This document shows, piece by piece, positions 4,341 through 61,385 of a stretch of DNA of 64,000 nt; position 1 is the stretch's first letter; every line of letters begins with the position of its first letter. The position numbers were made by a program, and so were the translations under genes. The notes under the pieces were generated by a model. It was not told where the DNA came from and searched no databases. It saw only the letters and a list, made by a program, of their open reading frames with translations. Origin of the DNA: a virus; IMG/VR virus record IMGVR_UViG_3300029305_004519, positions 13,541 through 77,540 of that record. The stretch is one strand, 5' to 3'.

Positions 4341-5452
4341 TATAATCTTACCCTTTCTTTAAATAATTTCATAAATGTTTCTGCGCCACAGTCGACGGGC
4401 GCATCTTTATATCCTAACATATCTCCCTTTTTATCAAAGATAAAAGAGATATTAACTAATTTCCTATATTTATTATGCAGCGCCGTTAGTTTCTTCGTCC
4501 ACTGCTTAAACTCTGCATCATTAGGTTCCTTAAATTGCTTATCAAAAGCAATCACTATCTCTATTGCTCCATACTGGCGCAAAAGGTCGACTTGATGCTG
4601 AATTAAGTTACTACCACAAGTTGCAACAGAGATGTCATTATCGGCACCAAACATTGATGCATATTTTAATGCGCTTTTCTCCCCCTCAAAGACTATTGCA
4701 GTTCTAAACTTACGGATGTTGTCTTTTGAGAAGTTTAAGTTATATAAAGCAAAACCTAATGGATGATTGTATTGAACGCCATTAAGAATCGCTGGTCGAT
4801 ACTTTCCGTATGCTTCTTCTTCTTTGATAAGCGTGCGTTCACGGATACCTATTAGTGCCCCATTTTCATCATAATGAGGTATCACAATACCTTGATTAAC
4901 TGGATCATAGCAGATACCGTGAGAATCCATTATCTCTTGAGTTATTCCTTCGTTAAGCCATGGCGTAATGCGCGGGCGTGGCAAATGCTGAAGAATATTT
5001 TCATCAAATTCTTTAAACTCAATTATTTTTTTATCATTACTGATGGAACTATTTTGTTGATAATTCTTTAAAATATCCCAATCACGAAGTTTTTGTTGAG
5101 AGTCTCCAAAATTTTCATCTTCAGATGAAGCTATGCTAAAGTAATGGGCAACATACCCTACGGCGCGCGATAGTGACCACTCTTCACCGCGCTGAAGCGC
5201 CCATTTGCGTGTTAGGTCAAAGATGTCGAATGAGTCACCACATTGAGTCCAACAATGGAACAACTTTGTATTCTCATAGTAGTAGAGTTTATGCGAACCA
5301 GTTCCGATTGGATTATGGCAGATGGTTCTTGAGATAAAGATTTCAGCACCATTTGAATCAAGTCGTGGTTCTCCTCCAAGCTCGGCAATATAATCGAATA
5401 CTTGTTGGAAGGTGAGTTGTTGCTTGATTGCGTCACTGTCATACCTCATTTT
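4340..5452 (-). CDS. DNA primase (DnaG-like; CHC2 zinc finger plus TOPRIM)
   Basis: CHNP...HKLYYYENTKLFHCWTQCG zinc finger; TOPRIM segment IVFEGEKSALK...VIAFDKQ. RBS GGGAGGAGAAAA upstream of the ATG at 5452. Confidence 0.8.
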   Translation of the reverse strand, partial: KMRYDSDAIKQQLTFQQVFDYIAELGGEPRLDSNGAEIFISRTICHNPIGTGSHKLYYYENTKLFHCWTQCGDSFDIFDLTRKWALQRGEEWSLSRAVGYVAHYFSIASSEDENFGDSQQKLRDWDILKNYQQNSSISNDKKIIEFKEFDENILQHLPRPRITPWLNEGITQEIMDSHGICYDPVNQGIVIPHYDENGALIGIRERTLIKEEEAYGKYRPAILNGVQYNHPLGFALYNLNFSKDNIRKFRTAIVFEGEKSALKYASMFGADNDISVATCGSNLIQHQVDLLRQYGAIEIVIAFDKQFKEPNDAEFKQWTKKLTALHNKYRKLVNISFIFDKKGDMLGYKDAPVDCGAETFMKLFKERVRL

Positions 5453-5894
5453 TCTCCTCCCTATATTTCGAACATATAAAACCAAAACCATCTATTCTAC
5501 CTTTTTTAAGCGTACAATAGTATGACCCTTGTTTAAAGGTGCAAAAAATACAATTTGGTTTGCAGAAAGTAAGATTACAAGCGTCCTCAAAAAAATTACA
5601 TTTTGCTCGCTGATCTCTTTTGTGATAATAATCGCAAGGCATATCTTTATAAAATTCTTTAAGAGGTTCAGGATGATTGAACAAACATATTGGACCTACC
5701 ATGGGATCACTGTCATCAAAATGAATACAATCATCTTGACAAGTTTTCTGCTCTCTAACAGGCTCAGTTTCTATATAACATCCGCATTTCCCATCGGCGT
5801 CAATATTAATCACATAGTTATCACATATTCCATTATAATTAAATAAGCAATTAGGATGCGCCTTACATTTTACTATTGTGTTCTTTTGATCCAT
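5439..5894 (-). CDS. Cysteine-rich hypothetical protein (about 23 Cys in 151 aa)
   Basis: ORF lying between the primase and helicase genes. No recognisable catalytic motif. Confidence 0.4.
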   Translation of the reverse strand: MDQKNTIVKCKAHPNCLFNYNGICDNYVINIDADGKCGCYIETEPVREQKTCQDDCIHFDDSDPMVGPICLFNHPEPLKEFYKDMPCDYYHKRDQRAKCNFFEDACNLTFCKPNCIFCTFKQGSYYCTLKKGRIDGFGFICSKYREEKNEV

Positions 5895-11044: not shown

Positions 11045-11896
11045 TTAATCAAAGATTAGCTCTTTTGCATAAGGTAAAGTCTGCACCCATTCAAGAAAGC
11101 TATGCCATTCAGAGAGCTTATGTCCCATGCGCTGATGAGCCATGCTACGAAGATTCTCATAATTCATAGTCACTGTGCGGGTTTGGAGCCAACCATTAGG
11201 GAGCCAACGGATAAGTTCTTTCCAATAGCGTTTATCTTTTGTTTCAAGATACTTTTGACGAAGAGCTTCGAGATCTTCAATTAAGTCTTCTGCAAAGGCA
11301 CCTACTGGCATATCAACAGTAGCAGCTTCTTCAACATTAGGATAAGGATATGTGATAGAATCATCATAATCATCAGTCTCAAAGCAATCAAGCGTAATCG
11401 GCGTAAAAGCCAACTTGTGCATTGTACTAGTTGAGTTTGCCGTAGTTCCTATCTTGTAGGTGTCGAATTCTTTCCACCAATAGAGGGGAGCAGTAATGTC
11501 AACAGACACCATAATCTGACGTAAAAACTTACGATGTTCTGGACCTCCGTTTATAAGTCTACGACAAAGATCCATATCATTAGGTCCGATTAGATCAAGA
11601 GTATAGTGATGGTCTGTACCAATTAAAGCAGCCCCTTGTTGCCAGAGCCAGGTATATTTAGCATCAGAAATTTTATCAAACTCTTTATTGTAGTCTTCTT
11701 CTGTTGCAAAAGTGGCATTTTGCAGTTCATATTCTGCCCAAGCATTTGCGACATCATATACATCTTCAGAAATTGAATCTTCATATTCGCACCAAATTCC
11801 AAATTTACTATCGCTTTTCGCCCAGCTATTCATGGGGTTACGCATACCTCTTAGCGCGCCTTCAAAATTCATCACAGCAGTGTTTTCAAATTTCAT
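11045..11896 (-). CDS. ThyX-like (flavin-dependent thymidylate synthase fold) protein that lacks the RHR motif
   Basis: C-terminal region ...NLRSMAHQRMGHKLSEW aligns with ThyX ...[13 protein letters not shown]. At the expected RHR position it has ...KEFDTYKIG. Confidence 0.5.
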   Translation of the reverse strand: MKFENTAVMNFEGALRGMRNPMNSWAKSDSKFGIWCEYEDSISEDVYDVANAWAEYELQNATFATEEDYNKEFDKISDAKYTWLWQQGAALIGTDHHYTLDLIGPNDMDLCRRLINGGPEHRKFLRQIMVSVDITAPLYWWKEFDTYKIGTTANSTSTMHKLAFTPITLDCFETDDYDDSITYPYPNVEEAATVDMPVGAFAEDLIEDLEALRQKYLETKDKRYWKELIRWLPNGWLQTRTVTMNYENLRSMAHQRMGHKLSEWHSFLEWVQTLPYAKELIFD

Positions 11897-12083
11897 TTTC
11901 TTTATTTACCTTTCTATTCCATAATTCTATTGCATCTCTGCAATCTACTTTTGCTTCATCATAGTCAGCCGCCTCATAATAACAATGAGAGCATTGTACC
12001 ACCCAATAAGGACGCTGACCTCCCTCATCTCCTACCTAAATAGGACGAGCTGCATGATGGCATTTTGGACACATAGCTAACAT
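11886..12083 (-). CDS. Small zinc-ribbon protein with one in-frame TAG
   Basis: Hand translation gives MLAMCPKCHHAARPI[TAG]VGDEGGQRPYWVVQCSHCYYEAADYDEAKVDCRDAIELWNRKVNKENEI, then TGA. RBS GGAGGA upstream. Confidence 0.5.
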
Positions 12084-12362
12084 TATTCTTCATCCTCCTC
12101 TATTCCATCTTTATATTTCTTTTTAAGTTTCTTTAAATAGCGAATTGCATCGTCAAAAGAGTCTTCATAGGTCTCATGCTCGAATTCGCCGCTATCTTCC
12201 CATTCAAGAGAGATTTCAATTCTTGTTACTTTCATTATTTAATTCCTCAATTTTTATTTTAAAACAAGTATGACATACAAAATCTAAACAATCGTTCCAA
12301 GACCAAAACTCTTTTTCTTCAATGTCGCCGATTTCATCTGTCCATTCTAGTTTAATATACAT

Positions 12363-13556
12363 TTAGCTATTCCCGCGAGTTTTATTCAGGCCAAAATCAT
12401 ATGTTTGATAGAGGTCGATATAAAACTTCTCCTTTTCATTTAATTCATTGATACTACATTTTTCTAATACTTCAAAAGTAAAGTTATCAATACCTTTTTC
12501 TCTTGTGAATGCATAGAGTTGACTTGTTACAGGGGTGTCGATACCCAAGCTACATTTAACATGCGTTACCCAACGCTCTTTGATATCTTTAGCTTGTCCG
12601 ATGTATGATATGCCAGAGTCAATGTGGGTAATTTTATATATTCCACTTGCGCCCACCGCACCTACGCGCGCCGCAAGGTCATTGACTTTATCTCTATAGA
12701 ATGTAGACCATATAAGCATTCGCAAAGGTCTTGCCTCACGCAAATTATATTCAATGCTTTGAAGATATGCAACATCCCGTTTATCAGCTTCATTAATTTG
12801 AAGGGTATAAAATGTCGCTTGATTTTTAATTTCTTCTTCACGGAGTTGTGCCTCCATTGCGGCGGCCTTAGTTGCACGAATTTTTTCTAGCTCTTCACGA
12901 ATTGAATCTAAATCAGCGCGCATTGCCGCCTCTTCTTCTTGCAGCTCTTTAGACATTGATTGTTGCTTATCATAAAAGAGTTTTACAAGAATATCTAAAT
13001 CTTGACGCTGTTCTTCGATTAAACCATTTTCTCTAGCATCTAATTCTAACATTCTAGTGAAATAAAGCTCATCTAGCTTTGCGATGTCATTATTAAACTC
13101 CTGTTCTCGCTTTTGATATTCATAATCAAGAGTATCACAATATTGCTCAAATGAGGTGCGAGCAGCTGCCTTTAAACTACCTGACATCTCATCTATTGAG
13201 CGATTTAAAGTGGCGATTTGCGCCTCCACTCCTGCTTTTTCAATTTGCTTATTTTGAATTTCATTTATTAACAATAATTTCTATTGAGTTAATTGATTTA
13301 ATTCGTCATAAGAATTTTTTGTTTTTTTACAGTTCTCTTCATACTTTTGAGAAATTTCATTGTTAGATTTTATCAATAAGTCATTTTGAGCTTCTAGGCT
13401 TTTGCGAGTTGCATGTAATGACTAATTAAGCTCTTCCAGTTTCTAATTTTCTTCTGCTACATAGTGATTTGCTTTTATAGTTGTGGCTTTAGCCCATATT
13501 CCGTAAGCAAGGCCGCCTACGCCAAGAAGAATTGATATTACACATATGATTATCAT
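12363..13556 (-). CDS. GIY-YIG endonuclease with N-terminal TM/coiled-coil region and three in-frame TAG codons
   Basis: C-terminal GIYKITHIDSGISYIGQAKDIKERW (GIY-YIG). Reading up from the ORF-track start, the frame stays open through TAGs: MIIICVISILLGVGGLAYGIWAKATTIKANHYVAEEN[TAG]KLEELN[TAG]SLHATRKS...LNQLTQ[TAG]KLLLINEIQNK. Total 398 codons. Confidence 0.5.
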
Positions 13557-13608: not shown

Positions 13609-13860
13609 TTAGTCTTCTGTTGCAGTAGGATCATAGTCACGACCTGTATCAGTAAGGCGAATATATTTTACCTTACCGCCAGTGACTGCAACCTCTTCAC
13701 GCTCTAAAAGCTCGTGGTGTCTAGCCATAGCAGTGATGCATCCATTTACCGACTTTACAGGAATACCCGTTGCCTATGCAATATCTGCTGCAGTGAAATC
13801 TTCTCCGTCATGCTCTCTTACATAATTAAAAATTGTTAAACTGTTTTCTTTAAGTGCCAT
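13609..13860 (-). CDS. Small winged-HTH protein with one in-frame TAG
   Basis: MALKENSLTIFNYVREHDGEDFTAADIA[TAG]ATGIPVKSVNGCITAMARHHELLEREEVAVTGGKVKYIRLTDTGRDYDPTATED, then TAA. 84 codons. Confidence 0.5.
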
Positions 13861-14185: not shown

Positions 14186-15019
14186 TCATTTCATTAACTC
14201 CAATAATTCTTCTTCAGTAATAATCGGAATGCCAAGTTCCTTTGCTTTAAGATTCTTTGATGATGTACTATCAATATCATTATTGACGAGATAATCAGTT
14301 TTTGAAGAGACCGATGATGTTACTTTACCACCTGCGGCGGTCACTGCTGCAGAAAGTTCATCTCGGTTTTTCCAGATGTGGACTCGACCTGTAACGCAAA
14401 AGGTTTTACCCTCAAGCGCATTTCCAGAATTTTCCAGCGCGCTTTCATTTGTTTTAAAGGTAATAATCCCCTTTTCTACAAGGCTATCTGCTTCCGTATA
14501 GTCAAAGCTTAAAATCGCATCTGCTTTCTCTGGTCCAATACCATCAAGCGACTCAAAATCAAAGCCATTCGCAACAGCATTTCTAAATTCTTCATAAGTT
14601 TCAAAAGTATTTGCAAGTTTCTGCGCATAGGTCTTACCTATAAGCGGAATGCTAATTGCGCTTAAATACTGTGCAAGAGTAGTCTCGCGTGCTTTCCATA
14701 TAGAGTCAATGAGCTTAGTTACGCTTTTAGGTCCGAAACCAGGCTTACTAGCCCAGAGATCAGCTACTTCACCGAGTGCGCAAATATCGCTTATAGAAGA
14801 TACCCAGCCCCAGTCGATAAGTTTCTCTAAAGTTGCTTTAGACAAGCCTTTAATATCAAGACCTTTCTTTGATACAAAATGTTCTAATTTGTTAATCAAT
14901 TTTCCACTGCAATCAGGATTATTACAAAATAATTCTTGTGTGCCGCTATCGCTCGTTTTGATAATTGTATTTCCGCCGCAAATAGGACAAGTCTTTGGTA
15001 TTTCAATCCATTCAATCAT
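14186..15019 (-). CDS. ligA: NAD-dependent DNA ligase, C-terminal half (Zn finger, HhH, BRCT)
   Basis: CPICGG...CNNPDC zinc finger, HhH region, then BRCT-like GKTFCVTGRV...ELGIPIITEEELLELMK. Own RBS and ATG. Confidence 0.8.
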   Translation of the reverse strand: MIEWIEIPKTCPICGGNTIIKTSDSGTQELFCNNPDCSGKLINKLEHFVSKKGLDIKGLSKATLEKLIDWGWVSSISDICALGEVADLWASKPGFGPKSVTKLIDSIWKARETTLAQYLSAISIPLIGKTYAQKLANTFETYEEFRNAVANGFDFESLDGIGPEKADAILSFDYTEADSLVEKGIITFKTNESALENSGNALEGKTFCVTGRVHIWKNRDELSAAVTAAGGKVTSSVSSKTDYLVNNDIDSTSSKNLKAKELGIPIITEEELLELMK

Positions 15020-15983
15020 ATTTTCTTTCCTTTTTTACAATAAATTTACTTTTATTAATATCTAAATCTTCTAAGGTTAATTGTTCAAGATGAGTATAAG
15101 GAATTCTAATTAATATAATATTATTATCCATACACCATTTATTCTTAAAAAGATCTCGAGCATTAGTTTTTTGAAATTGCTCTTCTGCGACTTTTTTAGA
15201 TATGCCTCCAAATTGTCGAGGAGTAAAATGCTGTTCCCCATCATATTCAATTAAATATTTATTTTCAACAAAAAAATCATAATATAAATGATAATTCGTA
15301 TCTGGGTAAACACAAGTATCAAAAGTTTTCTATTTTTCAAAAGTAATATTATTTTCTTTTAAAAGTTTTTCAATACAGTATTCTCCTTTTGATTTTCCTA
15401 AGCACCCACAAGAAGAAGTGTGACCTCGTCTAAGATTTAACGTTGAAACTTGGATTTTATTATGATCAGGACATGAGCATTCACATAGCCACATAATTCT
15501 ACCATTTGGATCACGTTCTTCCATTTTTTCTATAACTGTTAATTTACCAAAATGGGATCCAACAAGATTTAATGCTCTTTGTTCTCCCAATTTCTTCATG
15601 CGCTCTTTGGTAATACAACCACAAGATTTAGTACCTCCATTTTCTCCTTTTTTCAGCTAATCAGTTGGTACTTTAGTAATATTTCCACAATCACACTAAC
15701 ATTCCCATATCATACATCTTTTAGGGGTTTTTTCTCCAGTTGGACGTAAAGCCACTAATCGTCCGAATCTTTGCCCTGTTAAATCTTCAAATTTAGGTTC
15801 ATGTTTTTTACATCCACAAGAAGTTACTCGCTTTGCATTTAATTCTCCAGAAGTTACTTCTTTTTGATTTCCACACTAACATTGACAAAGCCAAACAACA
15901 GCTCCCCCTTTTCGTTTGTCTGTTTTTTCAATTACTGTTAAATAACCAAACTACTCTCCAATTAAATTTTTACAAGCTGGCAT
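15012..15983 (-). CDS. Homing endonuclease (Zn-ribbon repeats plus Vsr-like/DUF559 nuclease domain) with five in-frame TAG codons, inserted inside ligA
   Basis: RBS AAGGAGAAAAG and ATG at 15983. Frame open for 324 codons through TAGs at GE*FGY, QC*CGN, EC*CDC, TD*LKK and FEK*KTF. C-terminus has YDFFVENKYLIEYDGEQHF...ARDLFKNKW...ILIRIPY (DUF559/Vsr-like). Ends with TGA overlapping the ligA-C ATG. Confidence 0.5.
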
Positions 15984-17103
15984 CGTTTATCTTTTCTCCT
16001 TCTGCTACCTGCGGAATAATTTGATTAGCGAGGTAGACTTTAATTTTTTGTCCTTTATAAGGTCTACCTAATATTAAATTTAAAGTAGATAAATTATGCA
16101 AATTTGCCCTTGAAATTATATTTGAACCCGTATCTACATCTTTGTAAACTGCAACTGGAGTCAAGACACCAGTTCTACCCATAGACCATTCAATGTCTAA
16201 GAGTTCAGTCTCATATTCCTCGTCATAGAATTTATAAGCAAGACCGCCGCGAAAATGATGTTCTGTTCTACCTGCTGCTTGGTATTCTTTAATATTATCC
16301 CACTTAAAGACAATACCATCAATAGGATAGTCATTTAAAGAAGATAACCCTTTTATAGATGCTTCAATATATTTTTCAGTCTCACCTCCGCAAAATGGAA
16401 CACTAATAAAGCTTAAACTTTGCAAATGAGTAAGTTTGGCGCTTAAAGTAGTCATATCAATATAATTAAATCCTTGAATAATATCCCAAGCTACAAAAGT
16501 CAATTCTCTTTTAGCGCACTCATTACTATCCAAAAGTCGAATACTACCAGCTGCAAAGTTACGCGCATTAGCATGCTTGCCTTTGAATTGCTCAAAAGTA
16601 TCGAGATCGCAGATAACTTCTCCATCTACTACAAGTGTATCTTTATAAGGAATAATTTGTGGAATAGAGGGGAGCACTCGCGCATTATGGGTAATATCTT
16701 CGCCCTCAACGCCGTCTCCTCTTGTCTCGGCGCGAATTAGTCTACCTTCTTCATAAGTCAAACGACAAGTTAAACCGTCAAGCTTAAGCATTGCAATCCA
16801 TTCTTTATCACCGATAAAAGATTTAATTTCTTCAATATCTTTTGTCTTATCAAGTGAAAGCATAGGTTGATATTCATGCTTTACTTTTTTAAGCTCAGAT
16901 ACTACTTCATATCTAATCTTCTTAGTAGGTGAATTTTCAAATTCGATACTTGGAAACTCTTGTTCAAGAGCTTTAAGTTCCAAATAAGCTTCATCCCATT
17001 CTTTATCTGTTATCTTTGGAGTCCCAGCATCATATTGGTCTTGATGATAATTAAGATATTCAATTAATCTTCGCATTTTTTGCGCTACATCAAATTTCTC
17101 CAT
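15970..17103 (-). CDS. ligA: NAD-dependent DNA ligase, N-terminal half (adenylation plus OB domains)
   Basis: KxDG motif MLKLDGLTCRL and ...IIPQVAEG (OB end). Stops just before the Zn-finger region, which is encoded by 14186-15019. Confidence 0.8.
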   Translation of the reverse strand: MEKFDVAQKMRRLIEYLNYHQDQYDAGTPKITDKEWDEAYLELKALEQEFPSIEFENSPTKKIRYEVVSELKKVKHEYQPMLSLDKTKDIEEIKSFIGDKEWIAMLKLDGLTCRLTYEEGRLIRAETRGDGVEGEDITHNARVLPSIPQIIPYKDTLVVDGEVICDLDTFEQFKGKHANARNFAAGSIRLLDSNECAKRELTFVAWDIIQGFNYIDMTTLSAKLTHLQSLSFISVPFCGGETEKYIEASIKGLSSLNDYPIDGIVFKWDNIKEYQAAGRTEHHFRGGLAYKFYDEEYETELLDIEWSMGRTGVLTPVAVYKDVDTGSNIISRANLHNLSTLNLILGRPYKGQKIKVYLANQIIPQVAEGEKINDASL

Positions 17104-17605: not shown

Positions 17606-19986
17606 AGTTTAATTACACTCCTTATAACGCTATTTTTAATCATTATATTGCCTTGCGCCGTACGTGCTAAGAGGGGAATTTCAGTGGCCGATATACAGAT
17701 GCTATTTGGTGAACCGACTATAAGAAGGTTATCTTCATCACTAATCAATACTGCGCCAGCCAGATCTCCACTTCCTATCTTTAGACCCTTACCACCTCTA
17801 CCCTGAACAGGGAATTCTTCAAGCAAGGTCTTGCGCCCCATACCATTTGTACTAAATGTTGCAAGAGTATCAGTGTTATGCTTAATAGGCAATCCGGTTA
17901 ATACTTCATCATCCTCATTTAGTTTAATACTCTTTACACCAGCGGTTACGCGCCCAATAGGGGCAATTTCTTTTGTTTCAAACCTAATGCTCATGCCTTG
18001 CTTGGTAATGATGATAAAATCTTCTTCATTAGCAAAAGTAACAGTAGCAAGAGAGTCGCCTTCCTTAAACTTAATTGCGGCGATGCCGGTTGCACGTTTG
18101 GTCTGGAGATATTCTTCCAATTTCGTCTTCTTGAAAAGACCTTGTTTTGTAATGAAGATTACATATTCTGCTTGGCTCTTGCGATAAAGTGAAGTCATCG
18201 CCACTACTTTTTCATCTGCTTCAAGATTAATCAACGCGCCAATACGCCCACCCTTGGAAGCATTAGTTCCAGTAGGAACTTTATCTACAAGTAAGCGATA
18301 CATTTTACCTTTATCTGTAAAGAACATTAAAGTATCAACAGTATTGGTAGAAATCATGTCAAGGATTGCGTCATCTGTTGTCTTTACTCCTTTGCCATTG
18401 CGGCGTTGCGTCTTAAAAGAAGCAGCAGGTACTCTCTTAATGTCACCATTTTGAGTCGCTATTACTACACAGTCTTCAGGCACTACTGTTTCAATTTCTT
18501 TCTCTGCTTTAGGAAGCTCGATTTGCTCAAGACCAGTTCTACGTGCGTCTCCGTATTTTTTAACGAATGCTGCAAGGCGCTCGCGCAATACTTCACGCTG
18601 CTTAGTTTCATTGAGGAAAAGAGTATTTAATTCTTCAACTTCTTTACGGAGCTCTTCTGCCTCTTGATTCAGCTCAACCTTTTCAAGTCCAGCAAGCTTA
18701 CCAAGTTTCATATCGACAATAGCTTTTGCCTGCGCTTCAGAGAATTTATAAGTGGTGATTAATGCATCCTTGGCGGCCGCCGCACTTGCAGATTTCTTAA
18801 TGAGAGCGATAATGTTGTCGATATCTTCCAATGCACGAAGCAGTCCTTCAACGATATGAAGTCTATCTTGTGCTTTTTCTAAATCAAACTGCGCTTCGTT
18901 TTGAATGCAAAGTAAGTTATGGTCTACATAAATCTCACAGCACTGTTTCAAATTAAGCTCCGTAGGAGTCTTATCAACAAGAGCGACCTGGTTGTATGAG
19001 AATGAGGACTGGAGATCAGTCTTTGCGAACAACTGCTTTACGATGGCGTCAGGGTTCGCGCCTTTTTCGCACTCGATAACAATTCTCATACCTTTCTTAT
19101 TACTCTCGTCTCTTAGATTTTCAATACCTTCAAGCTCTTTTGTATCACAAAGCTTACCAATATCCGCAAGAAGAGCTTCTGTTTGAACTCCATAAGGTAT
19201 CTCGTAAAAGACGATATTTTGTTTTTCTATATTATATCTACCGCGAACCTTTACTGTTCCGCGACCAGTTTTCATGATTGCAGGAATGTCGTTTTTATTT
19301 ATTACAACACCACCTGTTGGGAAGTCAGGTCCAGGTAACATAGGCTCGGCGCCATCCATATATGCGAAAATTGCATCTGCAACTTCAGTTAAGTTATGAG
19401 GCGCCCAATTACACGCAATAGCCCAACCAATACCCATATTCGGGTTGCAAAGTAGATTAGGAAACAATGCAGGAAGAGTCATAGGTTCTTCTGTTGTTTC
19501 ATCATAGTTGCGCATAAAGCGCACATTGCGCTTTTTTAGTCCTTGCAATAGTCCATCTTCAGTGAACTTAGCAAGGCGCGCTTCAGTATAACGATAATGT
19601 GCCGGACCATCGCCGCCCACATTTCCCATATTTCCGTGGAAATCAATCAGCGGATATCTCATTTCCCAAGGCTGCGCAAGGCGAACAAGCGCGCCGTAAA
19701 TAGAGCTATCTCCATGGGGATGGAATCTAGCCATTACATCTCCGACAATATTCGCGCATTTAACATGAGGCTTGTTAGAGCTTCTACCCGAATCATACGC
19801 GCCATAAATGATTCTTCTTGCAACAGGTTTTAAACCACTTGTAGCATCTGGTATCGCTCGGTCTTCATTCACGGCGGCTGCGTACTCAATGCAGTTATTA
19901 GATAATTCTTGTGTTAATTCAACTTTATTATACTCCATACTTAGCCTCCTTGCTATGGTCTTGAATAAACTTCTTTCTTGCTGCAA
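17602..19986 (-). CDS. Type IIA topoisomerase subunit A (GyrA/ParC/T4 gp52-like)
   Basis: AIPDATSGLKPVARRIIYGA...HPHGDSSIYGALVRLAQ...YRYTEARL signature; beta-pinwheel-like C-terminus. 794 aa. Confidence 0.85.
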   Translation of the reverse strand: MQQERSLFKTIARRLSMEYNKVELTQELSNNCIEYAAAVNEDRAIPDATSGLKPVARRIIYGAYDSGRSSNKPHVKCANIVGDVMARFHPHGDSSIYGALVRLAQPWEMRYPLIDFHGNMGNVGGDGPAHYRYTEARLAKFTEDGLLQGLKKRNVRFMRNYDETTEEPMTLPALFPNLLCNPNMGIGWAIACNWAPHNLTEVADAIFAYMDGAEPMLPGPDFPTGGVVINKNDIPAIMKTGRGTVKVRGRYNIEKQNIVFYEIPYGVQTEALLADIGKLCDTKELEGIENLRDESNKKGMRIVIECEKGANPDAIVKQLFAKTDLQSSFSYNQVALVDKTPTELNLKQCCEIYVDHNLLCIQNEAQFDLEKAQDRLHIVEGLLRALEDIDNIIALIKKSASAAAAKDALITTYKFSEAQAKAIVDMKLGKLAGLEKVELNQEAEELRKEVEELNTLFLNETKQREVLRERLAAFVKKYGDARRTGLEQIELPKAEKEIETVVPEDCVVIATQNGDIKRVPAASFKTQRRNGKGVKTTDDAILDMISTNTVDTLMFFTDKGKMYRLLVDKVPTGTNASKGGRIGALINLEADEKVVAMTSLYRKSQAEYVIFITKQGLFKKTKLEEYLQTKRATGIAAIKFKEGDSLATVTFANEEDFIIITKQGMSIRFETKEIAPIGRVTAGVKSIKLNEDDEVLTGLPIKHNTDTLATFSTNGMGRKTLLEEFPVQGRGGKGLKIGSGDLAGAVLISDEDNLLIVGSPNSICISATEIPLLARTAQGNIMIKNSVIRSVIKL

Positions 19987-21826
19987 CTCCAGCGCCCATT
20001 AATTGATCAAACAAAACATCTGCTTTCTTTGCTTCTTCAACTGTAACCTGATTCAACACTCTTAAACTTGGATCTACAAGAATTTCGGTCTCGTCTTCTG
20101 ACATCTCACCTAATCCTTTGAATCTATTAACCTGATACTTTTTTCCTCTATTTTTTTCTTGGAATTCAGCTAAATCTTTATCGTCTCTTAAATACAGATA
20201 AGTATCTTTACCCATTGTAATCTTATAGAGCGGCGCCACAAGCGCATATACATATCCTTCTTGAATAAGCTGTGGGCAGAAGTTCCAGATAAAAGTATAA
20301 AATAGGTTTCGAATATGGCTACCATCAGCGTCACCATCTGCGGCTATAATGATCTTGCCATAGCGCAACGAATCCTTGTCATAGGTAAGTTTCATTGTCT
20401 TAGGGTCTGCTTTAAGACCGAATGCCTCAATCATAGTCATAATCTCCGCATTTTTTTGGATCTTATCCAGCGTGTTCTTTTGACAATTAAGGATTTTACC
20501 TCGAACTGGCATCACAGCCTGAAATTCATTATTTCGGGCTGACTTAAGATTTCCAGAGGCAGAATCTCCCTCTGTCACATAGATCTCACAGTTGGCGCGA
20601 ATCTTTGAATAACAATCTGCTAATTTCGAATCAAACTTAAGTGCCTTTTCTTTCTTCTTTTTTTCGCCACGAGCCGCGTCGCGCGCCTTTTTGGCGGCCT
20701 CTCTTGCCTTCCTTGCATTAATTGCTTTATCTGCAATTACTTTAATTTCTTTTTCGTTATTATTTAACCAAATACCCAAATTCTCTGCAAGCGCCTGAGT
20801 AAAGGTTGTCATTCCTATTTTAGTAATATTACTCTTAACCTGCGCATCATATGACACATTAGGCGCAGTAATATTAAATACAATATACATTCCCTCTTGA
20901 ATATCATCACCTGACAGATTTTCATCAGTAGACTTCAGCCATTTTTTCTCCTTAAAGAACTTGTTAAATTCTCTTGTGAGTACTGTTTTAATCTGCGTGA
21001 TATGAGGTCCTTTCTCTGTAAGTCCAGTATTAACATAGGGGACAAGAGTAGAAGAATAATTACTAGTATAAGTGAGGATAAAGTCCATTTTCTCTTTTCC
21101 TTCACTAAAATTCATAGAAAATCTATTATTGATTATTTCTTTATCTTTTACTGCTTTATCTGCTAAATCATTTAATCCACGAGTTGAATGATAAGTTGTT
21201 TTCTTTCCATTATCATCGAGATTAATGGTAAGTCCAGGGCAAAGGCAAGTGATCGTCTCAAAGAGCGAATGGATCTTAGACACTTCTACTTCAGGGTGAG
21301 TAAAGAATTCTTCGCTTGGTTCCCACTCAACTATTGTACCTGTTGCTAACTTAGAAATACCCGTTTCTCTTTCAAAAAATACTCCTTCTTTAAAACTTAC
21401 TCTTTCCATTCTGCCATCTCTGTGTGTAACAACATCAAGCCAGTGAGATAAAAACGTAGTAATCTTTGAACCAATACCAAAACTACCAAGAGAAGTCCCT
21501 TCATAAGTTCCATCATCTCGATATTTACCAGAAGTATTTAGAACTGAGAATGCTGCTTCTAGAATAGTTTTTCCATCATCGCGCTTTTCATTTACCAAGA
21601 AGCCCTGACCGTAATCACGCACTCTTACTTTAGCTCCTCGAAGTTCTACATCGATCTGATTGCCATGACCCAATCTAAATTCATCGACACTATTCGAGAT
21701 AATTTCTACTAAGAGCTGCGTTGCATAGGTAGTATCTCCAGCATATACTCCTGGGCGTAACCTTGTGAATTCCAAGGGCGAGAGCGATTCTATACTATCT
21801 TTAGTATATAATTTACTATCTACCAT
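19928..21826 (-). CDS. Type IIA topoisomerase subunit B (GyrB/ParE-like ATPase plus TOPRIM)
   Basis: GHKL ATPase N-terminus; TOPRIM segment EGDSASGNLKSARN...MPVRGKILN. 632 aa. Confidence 0.85.
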   Translation of the reverse strand: MVDSKLYTKDSIESLSPLEFTRLRPGVYAGDTTYATQLLVEIISNSVDEFRLGHGNQIDVELRGAKVRVRDYGQGFLVNEKRDDGKTILEAAFSVLNTSGKYRDDGTYEGTSLGSFGIGSKITTFLSHWLDVVTHRDGRMERVSFKEGVFFERETGISKLATGTIVEWEPSEEFFTHPEVEVSKIHSLFETITCLCPGLTINLDDNGKKTTYHSTRGLNDLADKAVKDKEIINNRFSMNFSEGKEKMDFILTYTSNYSSTLVPYVNTGLTEKGPHITQIKTVLTREFNKFFKEKKWLKSTDENLSGDDIQEGMYIVFNITAPNVSYDAQVKSNITKIGMTTFTQALAENLGIWLNNNEKEIKVIADKAINARKAREAAKKARDAARGEKKKKEKALKFDSKLADCYSKIRANCEIYVTEGDSASGNLKSARNNEFQAVMPVRGKILNCQKNTLDKIQKNAEIMTMIEAFGLKADPKTMKLTYDKDSLRYGKIIIAADGDADGSHIRNLFYTFIWNFCPQLIQEGYVYALVAPLYKITMGKDTYLYLRDDKDLAEFQEKNRGKKYQVNRFKGLGEMSEDETEILVDPSLRVLNQVTVEEAKKADVLFDQLMGAGVAARKKFIQDHSKEAKYGV

Positions 21827-21919: not shown

Positions 21920-22423
21920 TTAACTCTGTGGTTTATTATTTTCTTTATACCATTTATATCCTTCAATTTGAATTCTAAACTTCGTATACAACTCTGTTAA
22001 ACTATCGGCACATAAAAAGTTATCCTGAAAGCAGTAAAAATCTGCTCGTTGACGCAGGTTATTTTCGATTAAAAAATCTCTAAAAGCATCTGCGATTTGG
22101 TACAAGCGATCGATCTCTGCCCGAGCAGCCTCTTCACTTTTATCTAGTTCAAACCTTTTAGTGTAAAAAGCCGTATCTACAATCATGCAATACTTTTTAC
22201 TTTTCCGGTCAAAATAAACATAGGCATCATCCCACGAAAGAAAAGAAGGTGTTTTACTAGGGTCGACATTATATCCCCAAATGAATTTATTATCAAGCAT
22301 ATTAAATTCATCGTCTTCCCAATCAGGATACTCACGGCGGCAGCGCGCCTTGTCCTTAGCTAAATTCCGTGATATTGTTTTTAAATGTTTACTTATATAT
22401 TTAGTTAATTTTTGTTCTTGCAT
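21920..22423 (-). CDS. Hypothetical protein
   Basis: 167-aa ORF; RBS present. Confidence 0.4.
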   Translation of the reverse strand: MQEQKLTKYISKHLKTISRNLAKDKARCRREYPDWEDDEFNMLDNKFIWGYNVDPSKTPSFLSWDDAYVYFDRKSKKYCMIVDTAFYTKRFELDKSEEAARAEIDRLYQIADAFRDFLIENNLRQRADFYCFQDNFLCADSLTELYTKFRIQIEGYKWYKENNKPQS

Positions 22424-22467
22424 ATTTTCTCCTTTTTTGAGTAAAAGCTCCTCCTTAAATAAGAGGA

Positions 22468-22543
22468 GCTTTAAGTATGGCTGGGAGTGTGGGATTCGAA
22501 CCCACGCATAACCGGGTTAGAGCCGGAGGCCTTAGCCGCTTGG
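22468..22543 (-). tRNA. Amber suppressor tRNA, anticodon CUA, tRNA-Gln-like body (tRNA-Sup(CUA), predicted Gln)
   Basis: Hand-folded canonical 76-nt cloverleaf: AGGGAGT/ACTCCCA acceptor (A1·A72 mismatch, G2-C71, G3-C70), G73, encoded CCA, D-arm GCCA/AGGC, anticodon loop C-U-C-U-A-A-C (U33, C34 U35 A36), T-arm GTGGG-TTCGAAT-CCCAC. Shares TCGCCAAGCGG...CCCAGCCA features with the tRNA-Gln(UUG) at 42331-42408. Confidence 0.8.
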
Positions 22544-22602
22544 CGAACTCCCTATTGATTACATATAAATTATAATCAAAATTTTTGAAAAAATCAATTA
22601 TT

Positions 22603-23121
22603 TTAATCAATAGGGAACCAGTTTTCACCATTCTTAGGTTCTTTAATTTCCCAGAACTCAATTAGATCTCTGTATTTACTCCAGTTTTGAGTTGCAATGG
22701 CGTCAGCTAATTCATTACCAAGCTCTCCTTTGTGACCACTACATTTGATGATCTCGGCATTAAAAAATGGACGAGAAATATAGCCCCAAATTGCTTTCAT
22801 TAAGTCTACATTTTCTACTTCTTGCTTTTTACTGTTGCGCCAACCATTAGACGCCCAAGTTCGCATCCAAGAGTTACAACTATTAACTACATAGGCGCTA
22901 TCAGAGTAAATGACGAATTGATCATACATATGAGACTCTACATATCCAAGAGCACAAAGCATTGCCTTAAGTTCCATGCGGTTATTGGTTACATAATCTT
23001 CAGTATCATGCTCTATAAACAAGATCTCAGTATCATTTTCGTTCATTATAACCATACCCCAGCCGCCTTTTCCTGGGTTGCCGCGAGAAGATCCATCAGT
23101 ATATATATAATATTTACTCAT
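22603..23121 (-). CDS. rnhA: Ribonuclease HI
   Basis: YTDGSS...GWG, NNRMEL, SDSAYVVN, GHKGELGNELADAIA motifs. Confidence 0.8.
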   Translation of the reverse strand: MSKYYIYTDGSSRGNPGKGGWGMVIMNENDTEILFIEHDTEDYVTNNRMELKAMLCALGYVESHMYDQFVIYSDSAYVVNSCNSWMRTWASNGWRNSKKQEVENVDLMKAIWGYISRPFFNAEIIKCSGHKGELGNELADAIATQNWSKYRDLIEFWEIKEPKNGENWFPID

Positions 23122-24560: not shown

Positions 24561-25127
24561 TCAATCATCATTTTCTAACAGCTCCTCACATTTCTTCATT
24601 TCTGCTTTAACATCAGCAATTGCGTCATCAAGTAAAACAGGATATCCATCATGAGAGTCTACTCCAATATGATACATCCAAGGATCTCCCTTATAGAAGT
24701 TAGATGCTTGATGAGTATGCCCAAACAAATTAATCACGACCTGCCAAATTTCTTTTTCATCCAGATTATGAGTAATAATAGGATAGTGAGAGAGATAGAA
24801 ATTTAGTTTCTTATATTTTAGTCTTGCACAAAGCTGAACATCCCAGCCCATATCTCGATAAGCCTGTTCGCGCTTAGCAGTATCGTGATTTCCAAGACAT
24901 ACATGGATTTTGCCTTTGAGTTGTTTAAGAAGCGCCAAACCTCCCTCAATGTCGCCTAATACCAAATCTCCAAGAATCCATACATCATCTTCATCAGACA
25001 CTACAGAATTGAACTTTTCAATCTGCTTCATATTCATTTCATTTACATCTGCATACCCTCTGGCGCCCCAGATAAACTCACGGTCATGCCCCAGATGCAG
25101 GTCGCTAGTGATCCAAATCTTGCTCAT
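24561..25127 (-). CDS. Calcineurin-like metallophosphoesterase
   Basis: SDLHLGH, GDLV, GNHD and GHTH motifs. Confidence 0.7.
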   Translation of the reverse strand: MSKIWITSDLHLGHDREFIWGARGYADVNEMNMKQIEKFNSVVSDEDDVWILGDLVLGDIEGGLALLKQLKGKIHVCLGNHDTAKREQAYRDMGWDVQLCARLKYKKLNFYLSHYPIITHNLDEKEIWQVVINLFGHTHQASNFYKGDPWMYHIGVDSHDGYPVLLDDAIADVKAEMKKCEELLENDD

Positions 25128-25627
25128 TTTTTCTCCTCCATATTTCCATTTTCATCAACAATATAAATTTTATTATAGGTAAAAATACCTTCATGCCACT
25201 TAGGTTCTTTAAGTGCACGATACATTTTTGCAATTGCTTCAGGCGGAACATAGGCACGTCCGGCGCGCTGTGCATTGCGCTCTTGCGCAACCTCAAGAGG
25301 AACCTTAAAATAAATTACCTCAATCTCATTAGGAATAATATCCAATGCTTTAAGCAACTTCAAGCGAGCGCCATGGTTAAGATGAGTTGCGTCTGCATAA
25401 ACAGTTTCTCCAGACTTTAAAAGAGATTCAATGCTTGCTACATAAGTTTCCCAAACCTCATCTTCCTTTGAGAAATAATTATCATTCTCTTGAAGTAAAG
25501 CAAAACGAATTGCATCTCTTGAGACAATAAATTCATCTATCTTTTTATTTTGGTTAAGCCAAGTGCTTTTCCCTGAACCCGGAATACCAACCATCAATAT
25601 CAGCTTACCATTTATCTTATATTCCAT
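25124..25627 (-). CDS. P-loop polynucleotide kinase-like protein
   Basis: LMVGIPGSGKST Walker A; AAA_33/T4 PNK-kinase-like. Translationally coupled to the phosphoesterase. Confidence 0.55.
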   Translation of the reverse strand: MEYKINGKLILMVGIPGSGKSTWLNQNKKIDEFIVSRDAIRFALLQENDNYFSKEDEVWETYVASIESLLKSGETVYADATHLNHGARLKLLKALDIIPNEIEVIYFKVPLEVAQERNAQRAGRAYVPPEAIAKMYRALKEPKWHEGIFTYNKIYIVDENGNMEEKK

Positions 25628-26364: not shown

Positions 26365-27144
26365 TTACATAATATACCAAGTTGAAACCGTATTCTTTAT
26401 TAATTTAATAGTTGCAGCGGTTCCTTTTGTATATGTCACAGTTAAGTTTGTTAATTCTTCTCCATCTTGTAATGCAGCGGTAAATGAGGTGCCATTTAAA
26501 GTTATTGCACCACCCTCGGTAATAGCTAAGGCAGGATTGCTATTATTAGTAGTTTTCGTTTCAATTACTCCATCTTTAATAATAGTAACGGTAGTGAGAT
26601 TAGAGGAAGCTGTTGGAGGAGTATATGCTTCTCCTTCCATAGTAATGATACATAACTCTTTATTTTCATTTGGAAAAGCATCAAATGTAAATGTAAATAT
26701 TGAAGGATCTCCGGTTGGAGCCATAGAAAGATTTAAAGTTGTTTGTAATTTTGCTTCAGGAATAGTAATAGTTGCACTATGATCTACGCCTTCATCATCT
26801 CTAATTAAGGTTGTTGCATTTACCGTATAATAAGCTGCAAATGAAGTAGTTTTAATTTTAAAAATTGTCTATGATGAGCCAGACGTTACTTCTGCTCCAG
26901 TTAGAGCATGGAATGACTCCATTGTAAGCAATGCGTCTTCTACTGTAAAAGTAAGCGTTTTTTCACCTTCCCAAGCAATTAAACGAGAATTACCTTTACC
27001 TCCTTGAGCATATACTGTTGAGCTTGTTGATTCAATTGTACTCATTTTTGCAGTATCGATAACAAAAGAGCTGGGACCTTCTCCAGAACCAACTTTTTTA
27101 GTAAAAGTTAAATCACAAACTTCACGAATACCAAATCTATTCAT
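26365..27144 (-). CDS. Beta-rich structural-like protein with one in-frame TAG
   Basis: ORF-track fragments 26869-27144 and 26365-26724 are in the same frame and joined through a TAG at 26869-26871 (...EVTSGSS[TAG]TIFKIKTTSF...MAPTGDPSIF...). 260 codons. Confidence 0.5.
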
Positions 27145-27243: not shown

Positions 27244-28434
27244 TTAAGAATGGTATTTCAAGAGGAACTCATTACTTACAGCTTTAAAGCTCAATTCGCC
27301 ATCTTCTGAACGGAATACTAAGCCTTCACGCATACCCCCATCAATCTTTGACGGCGCGGATGCGGCAAGAGTCAACACCTCTTCACAAGTAGCAGGAAGT
27401 TCTAGGCGCCCAAGCACGGGTACAGTAGGCAATCCATAGGTATCACAAATGATCTTCATATCAATAGGATTCAGGCGTTCAACCCTACCATCCTTATAAC
27501 CATAAATAACATTAAAGATAGCCAAATCACGATTCTTCATTCCATAATCGCGCTTTTGCACAGAGGCACCGTAGATTTCGCCTTGAATGGTAAGAAATTC
27601 CAATTCCCTATCACAATTGTCCATCCATTCCATCCAACGAGCCATAACATTTTCCATATCATACTTTTCCGCCATTTCAACATAAATGTTGGTGTCATAA
27701 AAACACTTCTTATCTGGCTTATCAAATACGACATTTCGAGAGCAAACATAGAACTCTCTCTTTTTGCCTTTGCCGCGCAAGGTAAAGGTTGAAGAACTAC
27801 CATCAATTTTTTCAGTCAAGATCCAAGTTTTACGCTCTGAAGTATTGAAAAGATAAGGTAGATTTTGAACGCGCTCTTCATCAGTCTTTTTTACCCAAGC
27901 CGGCCAGCCATTTTTCTTATCTTTCTTTTTACCAAAGAAGAAGAACATTAGGCGGCGACCCCATTCGCGCTTCATTAACCAACGTGCCCACTTCTTTTTA
28001 AAGATGTCAGGTCTGCGCTGAGCCATTCTCTTATACTTGTCAGGTCCAGATCCTTTACGCTCATTATCAGCAGCTTCAGAATAAGTTACACCAAGCAACT
28101 CGGTGCAATCAACATTAGTTTCATTAGGAATTTTTACATCAAAGGCATTGATAGGAAGCGCCAAGCCTTGACTAATAACTCCAAACTTAGAAAGTTTCAT
28201 ACTCTTAACCTTAAACTTTTTAGGTGCCAAAAATGCACACCATTCCTTGTCTTCGGGTAGTTTTGAGTCAATCTCAAAATATACGCAAAGGTCTCCTGCT
28301 TTAAACTCACCGATCTTAGCGATACAAGTCCATCCGCCAATCCCAACAAGCTCTATATTATCAGCACCTTCAATAGGTCTTACCCAGTCTATACGAGTAG
28401 TATAAGCCAGTGCTCTTTTATCATTTATCAGCAT
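27244..28434 (-). CDS. ATP-dependent RNA ligase (Rnl family nucleotidyltransferase)
   Basis: Covalent nucleotidyltransferase motif I, TEKIDGSS (KxDG). 396 aa. Confidence 0.55.
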   Translation of the reverse strand: MLINDKRALAYTTRIDWVRPIEGADNIELVGIGGWTCIAKIGEFKAGDLCVYFEIDSKLPEDKEWCAFLAPKKFKVKSMKLSKFGVISQGLALPINAFDVKIPNETNVDCTELLGVTYSEAADNERKGSGPDKYKRMAQRRPDIFKKKWARWLMKREWGRRLMFFFFGKKKDKKNGWPAWVKKTDEERVQNLPYLFNTSERKTWILTEKIDGSSSTFTLRGKGKKREFYVCSRNVVFDKPDKKCFYDTNIYVEMAEKYDMENVMARWMEWMDNCDRELEFLTIQGEIYGASVQKRDYGMKNRDLAIFNVIYGYKDGRVERLNPIDMKIICDTYGLPTVPVLGRLELPATCEEVLTLAASAPSKIDGGMREGLVFRSEDGELSFKAVSNEFLLKYHS

Positions 28435-40358: not shown

Positions 40359-40443
40359 ATGGAGCTGAAGGTCCGATTCGAACGGACGCGGACTCTCGTC
40401 TCTCGCTTACAAGGCGAGTGCAATCGGCCACTATGCGACTTCA
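40359..40443 (-). tRNA. Class II tRNA (long variable arm). The canonical fold gives anticodon UGU, which is atypical.
   Basis: Acceptor GCTGAAG/CTTCAGC, U73, D-arm GCA/TGC with an 11-nt loop, anticodon stem CTCGC/GCGAG with loop CUUGUAA, a 14-nt variable arm, T-arm GTCCG-TTCGAAT-CGGAC. Directly abuts tRNA-Gly. Confidence 0.45.
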
Positions 40444-41228
40444 GCATATTAAGTTTTCAATAATCGCATAAGAAAATATATAATCACTTTAACGAGCCTT
40501 CACTCTACATCGTTTCTGAAGTGCGTTATTAACATATGTTCACGGGAGGCTGAGCAATGGGTAGCGATCCCACGCTTCTCCAATGGTTCTCTCTATCTTG
40601 CCCCGATAGGAAAGCAAGTAAATTAAACTACCACACCCTCGATCAATACTAAGGGAACTTTCACCGAGCTTCAGCATTAATTCTAAAATACCTGTTTTCA
40701 TCAAATTTGAAGCTATCTTTTATGCCCGATACGGCTACTCGCACCAGCCAAATCTGTTATAGTTTGTTACCAAACATCAACGGGAACGCTTATTTTTGAG
40801 ATACCTAGTTGATTATTCGCTTCATAACGGTTTCTCACGCCGCCAACTTTAGGTGGTATGCATCACTGCAGGGACTCTTCTCGCGCCAGATTCCTGACTG
40901 TTGTTTACGCTAAATCATCAATATGCACCATTATCCGCAACCTTTGTCAGGCATACTCGTTTATTCAGTATATTCACGAGTTTTATTTACTTTAGAGCAG
41001 TATCCCACTCTGTTTCTTTCCCCGCGGATCTGTCCTAGCCATCATGCAAGATGTCTGCACTAGGATGTTAAAGGTTTATATATTTTCTTATGCAATTATC
41101 AATGAACTTTTTTCTTTTGATTACTTAATCATTATATCATAAATTTTTTAAGTTTTCAAGAGAGAGGTGAGGCTTTAGGTCAGCCGACCGCACATCTGTT
41201 GATTGCTGGAACTTTTGCTCTTCCAAAA

Positions 41229-42330: not shown

Positions 42331-42408
42331 TGGCTGGGCAGGTTGGACTCGAACCAACGAAATGCAGGAGTCAAAGTCCTGTGCCGTAACCAACTTGGCT
42401 ACTGCCCA
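42331..42408 (-). tRNA. tRNA-Gln(UUG)
   Basis: Acceptor TGGGCAG/CTGCCCA (U1-A72), G73, anticodon stem CAGGA/TCCTG with loop CUUUGAC, T-arm GTTGG-TTCGAGT-CCAAC. Confidence 0.7.
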
Positions 42409-42571: not shown

Positions 42572-42658
42572 TGGTGAGCGTGGCGGGAATCGAACCCGCG
42601 ATGGACATAATGTCGAGGGATTAAAAGTCCCTTGTACTCGCCGCTGTACTACACGCTC
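42572..42658 (-). tRNA. Class II tRNA (long variable arm). The canonical fold gives anticodon UUU, which is atypical.
   Basis: Acceptor GAGCGTG/CACGCTC, A73, D-arm GTAC-AGCGGCGA-GTAC, anticodon stem AGGGA/TCCCT with loop CUUUUAA, a 16-nt variable arm, T-arm GCGGG-TTCGATT-CCCGC. Confidence 0.45.
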
Positions 42659-44287: not shown

Positions 44288-44363
44288 TGGCGACTCTGAG
44301 GCATTCCGACAGCCCGACCTTCGCAGTGACAGTGCGATGCTCTACCCCCTGAGCTACAGAGCC
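44288..44363 (-). tRNA. tRNA-Asp(GUC)
   Basis: Acceptor GGCTCTG/CAGAGTC, G73, D-arm GCTC-AGGGGGTA-GAGC, anticodon stem TCGCA/TGCGA with loop CUGUCAC. T-arm is irregular. Confidence 0.5.
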
Positions 44364-58413: not shown

Positions 58414-58630
58414 TACAAAGTTGTTGGAATTTAATACTTTTCTTAAGGATATATAAATAATATATAATGTTTAAGTAAAGTATTAAATCCAAACGAAAGT
58501 TGTTTATTATCGACCATGAGTTTAAGTAATTTATTAAATTCCAACAAATTTGGTTTAAAATGTCGAAAGATGGACTGCCCTAGCGAAGCGACGGGCAGGA
58601 CTTCTTGAGGAATGGAGGTGAAATAGATAG

Positions 58631-60836: not shown

Positions 60837-60843
60837 GGGGTTT

Positions 60844-61308: not shown

Positions 61309-61309
61309 T

Positions 61310-61342: not shown

Positions 61343-61385
61343 AGGTTTGGGAAAAATTTTTCAAAAAATTTTTGGGGTTGGGGGC

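Follow-up and report, generated by a model that had tools for sequence, protein, structure and literature searches.

The window analysed here is a 64,000-nucleotide stretch of viral DNA (positions 13,541 to 77,540 of the IMG/VR record IMGVR_UViG_3300029305_004519) that carries, on its minus strand, a 76-nt tRNA gene with the anticodon CUA, a putative amber suppressor (Table 1). The gene is surrounded by TAG-free replication genes: an RNase H gene lies immediately upstream, and a hypothetical gene encoding 167 amino acids (aa; 21920-22423), followed by gyrB and gyrA, lies on the other side. A preliminary description of the stretch had likewise placed the tRNA between a hypothetical gene and rnhA, with coordinates (22468-22543) that are off by 10 nt and with the strand unstated.

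Both ARAGORN and Rfam fold the region as a tRNA, with an Rfam score well above the RF00005 gathering score of 29, as is expected of a canonical elongator tRNA. In its sequence, AGGGAGTTCGCCAAGCGGCTAAGGCCTCCGGCTCTAACCCGGTTATGCGTGGGTTCGAATCCCACACTCCCAGCCA, ARAGORN starts the anticodon at position 34, and this register yields C34, U35, and A36 within a 7-nt loop, C-U-C-U-A-A-C, that has U33 and a purine at position 37, the arrangement of an amber suppressor. The acceptor stem is drawn with six Watson-Crick pairs and an A1·A72 mismatch, the D stem with 3 bp and A13·A22, and the anticodon stem with 4 bp and a U27·U43 mismatch, where stems of 7, 4, and 5 bp had been described previously. The remaining anatomy agrees with the cloverleaf proposed in that description, including the CUA anticodon and its loop, the G18G19 of the D loop, the T arm with its perfect GTGGG/CCCAC stem and TTCGAAT loop, G73, and the encoded CCA; the variable loop is 5 nt long. 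As five independent contigs from different samples share the tRNA and 120 nt of flanking sequence without a single difference, the gene is not an assembly artefact.

The sigma-70-like promoter site upstream of the tRNA is a pattern match only, in a region where 2.3 such sites are expected by chance. The terminator-like hairpin downstream has a 3′ arm that terminates in UUU, followed by one more U, and was missed by the terminator scan because this T run is too short. In L007, a relative whose RNase H is 77% identical, a hairpin of another sequence and the same energy occupies the same place. Given the promoter-like site and the terminator-like hairpin, the suppressor gene looks like a self-contained transcription unit within the replication module.

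E. coli glutaminyl-tRNA synthetase (GlnRS) reads an openable 1:72 pair and G73 at the acceptor end of the tRNA, and U35 is its main anticodon determinant. Read from the sequence, the suppressor has acceptor features of this type, namely an unpaired 1:72, G2-C71, G3-C70, G10, and G73, and it also has U35 and A37; position 38 is C, as it is in the phage's own tRNA-Gln(UUG). Because U35 is the main anticodon determinant, amber suppressors tend to be glutaminylated. The same tendency is stated by Borges et al. (10.1101/2021.08.26.457843). ARAGORN finds 25 tRNAs in the window, the suppressor included, and Rfam one more. Of the 25 that remain when the suppressor is set aside, the ordinary tRNA-Gln(UUG) resembles it most, with 50 of 78 positions identical (64%). 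A 16-nt word from the D arm, which has at least 120 matches in genomes, occurs there chiefly in tRNA-Gln(UUG) (40), but also in tRNA-Cys (26), tRNA-His (16), and tRNA-Met (5). A 25-nt pattern of acceptor and D arm has no match in genomes, and the exact combination of the Gln-type D arm with CUCUAA has none in IMG/VR. The D arm (TCGCCAAGCGG-N-AAGGC) matches what we take to be that of E. coli tRNA-Gln, and the suppressor is 70% identical to what we take to be the sequence of E. coli tRNA-Gln2; its D arm and acceptor end (xGGG..., TCGCCAAGCGG-N-AAGGC, ...CCCAGCCA) appear to be those of bacterial tRNA-Gln.

Suppressor tRNAs of related phages

RNase H, used as bait in IMG/VR, yielded one useful relative, L007, while in metagenomes it recovered only a 40% match that lacks the tRNA. 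L007 carries a tRNA at the same spot after its RNase H gene, and the Rfam alignment gives it a CUA anticodon in the loop CUCUAAA, together with U1-A72, G73, CCA, and a variable region of 28 nt. The four-base anticodon "taaa" that ARAGORN reports for this tRNA was rejected as a register error caused by the long variable arm. GyrB proved a broader bait, with at least 238 relatives in IMG/VR, of which a minority carry a suppressor. Six of the 80 relatives that were fetched have a CUA tRNA 0.65-1.5 kb upstream of gyrB, and these add two further sequence types. With the window included, eight members of the family carry CUA tRNAs next to gyrB, in four different bodies, two of them short and Gln-like and two with variable arms of 27-28 nt. 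The variable regions in the suppressors of relatives span 21-28 nt (L007, 10580-10678; L141, 6371-6467; L014, 12446-12533).

Together with two suppressors of the phage Phass-1, discussed below, six distinct bodies can be compared. Their 1:72 positions read A:A, U:A, A:C, U:U, A:U, and U:C, so that none is a G:C pair and four are mismatched, and all six bodies have G73 and the loop CUCUAA(A/C); G3-C70 is retained in four of the six. A weak or mismatched 1:72 combined with G73 across these suppressors is, as far as sequence can tell, a GlnRS-type signature.

A second related phage, represented by L149 (IMGVR_UViG_3300032167_000460) and L150 (3300029705_000054), has a GyrB that is 76% identical and carries a CUA suppressor of 75 nt that differs from that of the window. 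Both JGI samples in which this phage occurs also contain contigs identical to the window.

In-frame TAG codons and the residues aligned with them

At least six genes of the window, a minority, hold a total of 21 in-frame TAGs (Table 1). They include conserved genes in which the TAGs are spanned by family matches or by full-length homologues, as code 15, in which UAG is read as glutamine, would predict: the HNH homing-endonuclease-like gene (five TAGs), the 265-codon HTH-like gene (ten), and a tail-like virion structural protein (one). The HNH gene, which has full-length homologues and is inserted inside the gene for an NAD-dependent DNA ligase, has its TAGs within repeated Cys-rich motifs and the nuclease domain, and both halves of the virion protein around its TAG are conserved in proteins of Enterococcus phage EF1 and Phass-1. 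In the GIY-YIG homing-endonuclease-like gene, the N-terminal extension, which comprises a transmembrane segment and a coiled coil, fills a gap that would otherwise be non-coding, which is the support for its three TAGs. PHROGs were more informative than Pfam for the TAG-containing genes.

Table 1. Principal features of the window and the evidence for each; the strand is given for every feature.
Feature	Position	Strand	Description	Evidence
tRNA-Sup(CUA)	22478-22553	(-)	76 nt	ARAGORN; Rfam RF00005, 48.2 bits; five identical contigs
HNH homing-endonuclease-like gene	15012-15983	(-)	323 codons, 5 TAGs (aa 11, 36, 96, 109, 218)	phrog_374, 1.7e-52
HTH-like gene	57616-58413	(+)	265 codons, 10 TAGs	175 homologues, most of those listed full length
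Tail-like virion structural protein gene	26365-27144	(-)	259 codons, TAG at codon 92	phrog_2729, 1.7e-42, match spans TAG
HTH-like gene	13609-13860	(-)	83 codons, TAG at codon 29	phrog_142, stretch 8-60 spans TAG
268-codon gene	53287-54093	(-)	TAG at codon 26	L135 orthologue, CAA at the aligned codon
GIY-YIG homing-endonuclease-like gene	12363-13556	(-)	3 TAGs in N-terminal 94 codons	GIY-YIG by Pfam and PHROGs
tRNA-Gln(UUG)	42331-42408	(-)	Ordinary phage tRNA, in an array of 24 ARAGORN tRNAs and one found only by Rfam	ARAGORN
RNase H gene	22603-23121	(-)	TAG-free, immediately upstream of the suppressor tRNA	Pfam RNase_H, 3.3e-32
Sigma-70-like promoter	22569-22597	(-)	TTGATT-17-TATAAT, ends 15 nt upstream of the tRNA 5′ end	Consensus scan, 10/12 matches
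Terminator-like hairpin	22444-22472	(-)	12 bp, directly after the CCA end	RNAfold, -17.5 kcal/mol

In a mechanical comparison, coverage by open reading frames (ORFs) rises from 78% to 86% when TAG is counted as sense, a gain much of which is artefact. The TAG-linked ORF chains on the plus strand (30746-33244 and others) are antisense shadows of minus-strand genes, which appear because minus-strand CTA codons are read as TAG, and three further candidates (4343-5695, 58558-59367, and 60557-61489) were discarded as antisense or low-complexity shadows. The many in-frame TAGs of the preliminary description are thus real in a minority of genes, while its most striking ORF chains are not.

The recoding is partial, and the replication genes are TAG-free. 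Twenty-one TAG-free genes with homology support (7900 codons) contain no in-frame TAG, compared with 148 and 102 in the other two frames. They include genes for a RecJ-like protein, a DnaB-type helicase, AAA_24, both LigA halves, GyrA, GyrB, and RNase H, as well as an RNA ligase, a sigma factor, a major-vault-protein (MVP)-like protein, a nicotinamide phosphoribosyltransferase (NAMPT), and an SPFH protein. Within the window, TAA or TGA terminates all of these 21 genes and all six TAG-containing genes. In the naive gene set, 12 ORFs terminate at TAG, and these are overlaps with tRNAs, antisense ORFs, upstream halves of read-through genes, or small ORFs without support.

The six TAG-containing genes form a separate compositional class, with a GC content of 33.9% against 39.9% in the TAG-free genes and a general avoidance of NNG codons. 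They use 5 CAG to 47 CAA, compared with 125 to 149 elsewhere (p = 3e-7). This scarcity was considered as a sign of TAG replacing CAG and was dropped, since a control showed AAG/AAA and TTG/TTA to be equally depressed; the argument is non-specific because the TAG-containing genes are generally AT-rich.

The residue at TAG positions was examined in homologues that have a sense codon there. Only two of these, L010 and L137, were verified as independent standard-code comparisons. The orthologue of the HNH gene in L010 (P0002, 79% identity) contains no TAG, and it has CAA or CAG in six of seven columns and TCT in the remaining one, the columns being those with TAG in the window or in the recoded relative L008 (binomial p ~6e-8 against a Gln background of 4.5%). 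In the family of the 265-codon gene, Q outnumbers every other residue at five of the ten TAG columns, in up to 73 of 83 sequences (background 3.9%). L137, which has 53% identity to this gene, has Gln codons at 4 of 16 TAG columns (background 2.8%); in the comparison with L135, itself a recoded relative, six columns pair TAG with CAA or CAG. When real gene pairs with L007, L135, and L137 are pooled, 12 of the 32 one-sided TAG pairs are CAA or CAG (p ~7e-9). Where orthologues lack TAG, the aligned codon is most often a glutamine codon, as code 15 predicts. When aligned residues are scored by BLOSUM62, Q ranks first in both the HNH and the 265-codon families, with K a close second in the former, and W is absent from every TAG column.

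P0001 (89% identity), the database homologue closest to the HNH gene, shows Q at each of the five TAG positions, but its own DNA, L008, has TAG there. P0001 and P0130 were excluded as independent evidence for glutamine, as both are database translations of TAG as Q; the use of P0001 would be circular because a gene caller had already rendered the TAG of L008 as Q. The public protein products of L008, L009, L135, and L136 (P0001 and P0130) match their DNA only if TAG is translated as Q, and some upstream pipeline of the public protein collection already applies code 15.

The ligase gene that houses the HNH gene consists of two halves, one with adenylation/OB and the other with HhH/BRCT domains (14186-15019 and 15970-17103, minus strand), which overlap the intervening gene (15012-15983) at stops and starts; Rfam detects no group I intron at this locus. 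L007 has a single ligase ORF of 649 aa (18492-20459). Its gyrB is interrupted instead, in pieces at 12250-13527 and 14582-15268 with another ORF in the gap, and a TAG-containing HNH gene homologous to that of the window lies at 11403-12257.

Proposed decoding of UAG and its alternatives

Taken together, these observations make it very probable that the window encodes a functional phage amber suppressor tRNA and that UAG serves as a glutamine codon during infection (genetic code 15). Several phage genes would yield a full-length protein only if TAG is read. Insertion of glutamine at UAG, as the preliminary description had proposed, is supported by the Gln codons at TAG columns and by the Gln-like tRNA body, and its proposal that the phage reassigns the amber codon is supported by the in-frame TAGs in conserved genes, though for a part of the genes only. 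In the proposed mechanism, the suppressor gene, sitting in the TAG-free replication module, would be transcribed early by the host polymerase from its own sigma-70-like promoter, and the transcript, with its CCA already encoded, would be matured by RNase P. Since Pfam scans of the window ORFs found no synthetase (and no release factor), a host enzyme would be expected to charge the tRNA with glutamine, most simply GlnRS through U35, G73, and the opened 1:72, with A36 tolerated. The charged tRNA would then compete with the host release factor RF1 at UAG, so that the homing endonucleases, the small regulators, and at least one virion protein would be translated only after the suppressor has accumulated.

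A number of points weigh against this reading. The suppressor lacks U38 and G36 (it has C38 and A36), both of which are determinants of E. coli GlnRS, A36 being unavoidable in an amber suppressor; the identity rules applied here are those established biochemically for E. coli. Bacillota are the likely hosts, since Enterococcus phages are the nearest relatives in culture and Clostridia have been proposed as hosts for Phass-1, and many Bacillota make Gln-tRNA through a non-discriminating glutamyl-tRNA synthetase (GluRS) and GatCAB and not through GlnRS. Several other tRNAs of the window reach 60-62% identity to the suppressor, which leaves tRNA-Gln a small margin, and the D-arm word is found also in Cys and His tRNAs; for these reasons, similarity to tRNA-Gln taken alone appears suggestive rather than decisive. 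The earlier comparison with the phage's own tRNA-Gln(UUG) accordingly holds for the best match, the weak 1:72, and G73, while the resemblance is weaker than had been implied. Among distant homologues, Q is outnumbered by K, E, N, or S at several of the TAG columns, and some homologues in the database owe their Q to a translation that already reads TAG as Q. No antagonist of RF1 was found in the window, and the ten TAGs of the 265-codon gene require very efficient suppression.

Several of these points bear on the possibility that the tRNA is a functional amber suppressor that inserts another residue, whether Glu (through a non-discriminating GluRS, left unamidated), Lys, or Trp. In distant homologues, several TAG columns have K or E as their most frequent residue, K is close behind Q in the BLOSUM score of the HNH family, and the window's tRNA-Trp shares A1 and G73 with the suppressor. 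This alternative is nevertheless quite unlikely, as the counterpart of TAG in orthologues that are close or verified to use the standard code is overwhelmingly CAA or CAG, W never occurs at a TAG column, six independent suppressor bodies keep the weak 1:72 and G73, and all phage-specific TAG reassignments described so far go to Gln (10.1101/2021.08.26.457843). There is also a slim chance that the suppressor mainly serves as a weapon against the TAG stops of the host or of competitors, the phage's own TAGs being secondary, or tolerated nonsense mutations in dispensable selfish genes. Models of phage-host and phage-phage antagonism are discussed by Borges et al. (10.1101/2021.08.26.457843), and the TAG-richest genes of the window, homing endonucleases and small regulators, may be dispensable. 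The conserved virion protein, however, needs read-through to join its two conserved halves, the TAG positions are common to relatives and exchange with Gln codons with no decay, and full-length conservation of the ten-TAG gene indicates purifying selection on the read-through product.

Decay of a tRNA-Gln copy with a mutated anticodon, which would leave the TAGs as true stops or pseudogene lesions, might be suspected from the two stem mismatches (A1·A72 and U27·U43) and from the isolation of the suppressor from the main tRNA array. The mismatches recur at the same positions in the independent suppressors of relatives, however, and therefore look selected; the CUA anticodon and the locus are conserved in L007 despite its divergence, the promoter-like site and terminator-like hairpin are intact, and TAG is the stop in no supported gene, all of which makes decay highly improbable. 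Still harder to credit is a pyrrolysine tRNA. ARAGORN does print tRNA-Pyl, as it does by convention for every CUA anticodon, and the label was rejected on that ground. In a tRNA-Pyl, whose gene has PylS and PylBCD genes nearby, the variable loop is 3 nt long, the anticodon stem has 6 bp, the small D loop lacks G18G19, and the T-psi-C consensus is absent, an anatomy contradicted by the G18G19, TTCGAAT, 5-nt variable loop, and anticodon stem of at most 5 bp found here; Pfam scans of the window ORFs found no Pyl gene, and TAG aligns with Gln.

The phenomenon itself is already known. Suppressor tRNAs that let TAG be read as Gln in some ORFs have been described in Phass-1 and its EF1-like relatives (Babkin et al., 2023, PMC10607447), and the record of Phass-1 (OQ749652) is listed by NCBI under "Caudoviricetes code 15 clade." By its tail-like protein, which has 41% identity to the Phass-1 protein and 46-47% to that of EF1, the phage of the window appears to be a distant member of the same broad group. 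Shared with the Phassvirus/EF1-like group are large, siphovirus-like genomes (~120-140 kb), probable Bacillota hosts, 28-36 tRNAs, CUA suppressors, TAG as Gln in a subset of ORFs, and the lack of a dedicated synthetase. The Phass-1 suppressors likewise have a weak 1:72 and G73, with the loop CUCUAAA, yet their sequences cannot be aligned with that of the window by blastn, and the two genomes are without similarity at the nucleotide level. Phass-1 carries two or three suppressors by its anaerobic ribonucleotide reductase gene, whereas the window has one, between rnhA and gyrB, and 28% of the Phass-1 ORFs are recoded compared with far fewer in the window, where the main structural module may lie outside the stretch. 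Of 50,697 phage records, none was matched by megablast when 11 kb around the tRNA served as the query, and blastn of the suppressor tRNA returned generic tRNA matches only.

Borges et al. (10.1101/2021.08.26.457843) described code-15 phages that carry suppressor tRNAs and whose early genes keep to the standard code, and Peters et al. (2022, PMC9523058) report proteomic proof of Gln at TAG in crAss-like phages. As in the crAss-like, Lak, and other code-15 clades, the host of the present phage is assumed to use the standard code and the phage supplies the suppressor tRNA, early and replication genes fit the standard code while recoded codons stand in other genes, GC content is low, and TAG is rare as a terminator. 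The lineage is a different one, however, and no "code change module" with RF2 or a synthetase was seen in the window. As a further difference, TAGs are most frequent here in homing endonucleases and an HTH-like gene and not in lysis genes, of which none was identified in the window.

A familiar laboratory counterpart is E. coli supE44 (glnV44), a tRNA-Gln2 whose anticodon CUG has become CUA and which is charged by GlnRS despite A36, inserting Gln at UAG. The likeness lies in a near-identical D arm, G73, G2G3, an openable 1:72, and the anticodon CUA. Unlike supE44, the suppressor of the window has A1·A72, C38, and U27·U43. In addition, supE44 is a point-mutant chromosomal allele that gives partial suppression, whereas here a separate, naturally maintained phage gene would serve genes that depend on it.

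In practical terms, the contig and its relatives need translation table 15 for gene calling, as the homing endonucleases, the virion protein, and several regulators otherwise appear fragmented. With this phage, the TAG-to-Gln phages on record gain a distinct lineage, together with a small comparative set of natural suppressors at a conserved locus, whose common features, the mismatched 1:72 and G73, fit the idea that Gln-charging enzymes of hosts are easily hijacked. The current picture of stop-codon recoding in phages is unchanged. A bolder and rather unlikely reading is that a large family of phages (~110-180 kb) keeps a conserved "suppressor slot" beside gyrB, into which at least four structurally different CUA tRNAs have been installed or in which they have been remodelled, all of them converging on an unpaired 1:72 and G73; the long-arm forms might be charged differently, for example by a class II-type synthetase, and the amber code may chiefly gate selfish homing endonucleases and regulators, not lysis genes. 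If this were true, the slot would offer a natural comparative series on the evolution of suppressor identity and the purpose of recoding.

Other features of the window

The tRNA array holds a full-length ROOL RNA (40474-41088, minus strand; Rfam RF03087, 175 bits) between tRNA-Thr and tRNA-Leu. Two of the tRNAs, tRNA-Thr(UGU) (40360-40445) and one tRNA-Lys(UUU) (42572-42658), both on the minus strand, have stem-loop variable arms that are unusual for these isoacceptors and bring them to 86 and 87 nt. The tRNA found by Rfam and missed by ARAGORN (44291-44363, minus strand; 44.9 bits) has an aberrant T arm and no CCA, and its anticodon, read by eye from the loop, is GUC (Asp). Clustered genes at 24561-25627 and 27244-28434 (minus strand) encode a P-loop kinase (AAA_33/KTI12-like), a metallophosphoesterase, and an RNA ligase with an OB domain, a group that resembles an RNA or tRNA repair set.

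An 855-aa protein encoded at 30716-33283 (minus strand) contains a major-vault-protein shoulder domain (PF11978, 1.2e-23) and a vault repeat. Its relatives in the phage database are confined to the huge phages LR756500, LR756501, and LR756503, of 462-735 kb (42-43% identity), and it is 88% conserved in L007. An isochorismatase-family (nicotinamidase-like) protein (33506-34027) and a nicotinamide phosphoribosyltransferase (35348-36607), both on the minus strand and the latter also present in Phass-1, suggest NAD salvage. The minus-strand gene at 37476-39014 encodes an SPFH/Band 7 protein of 512 aa, part of which is flotillin-like.

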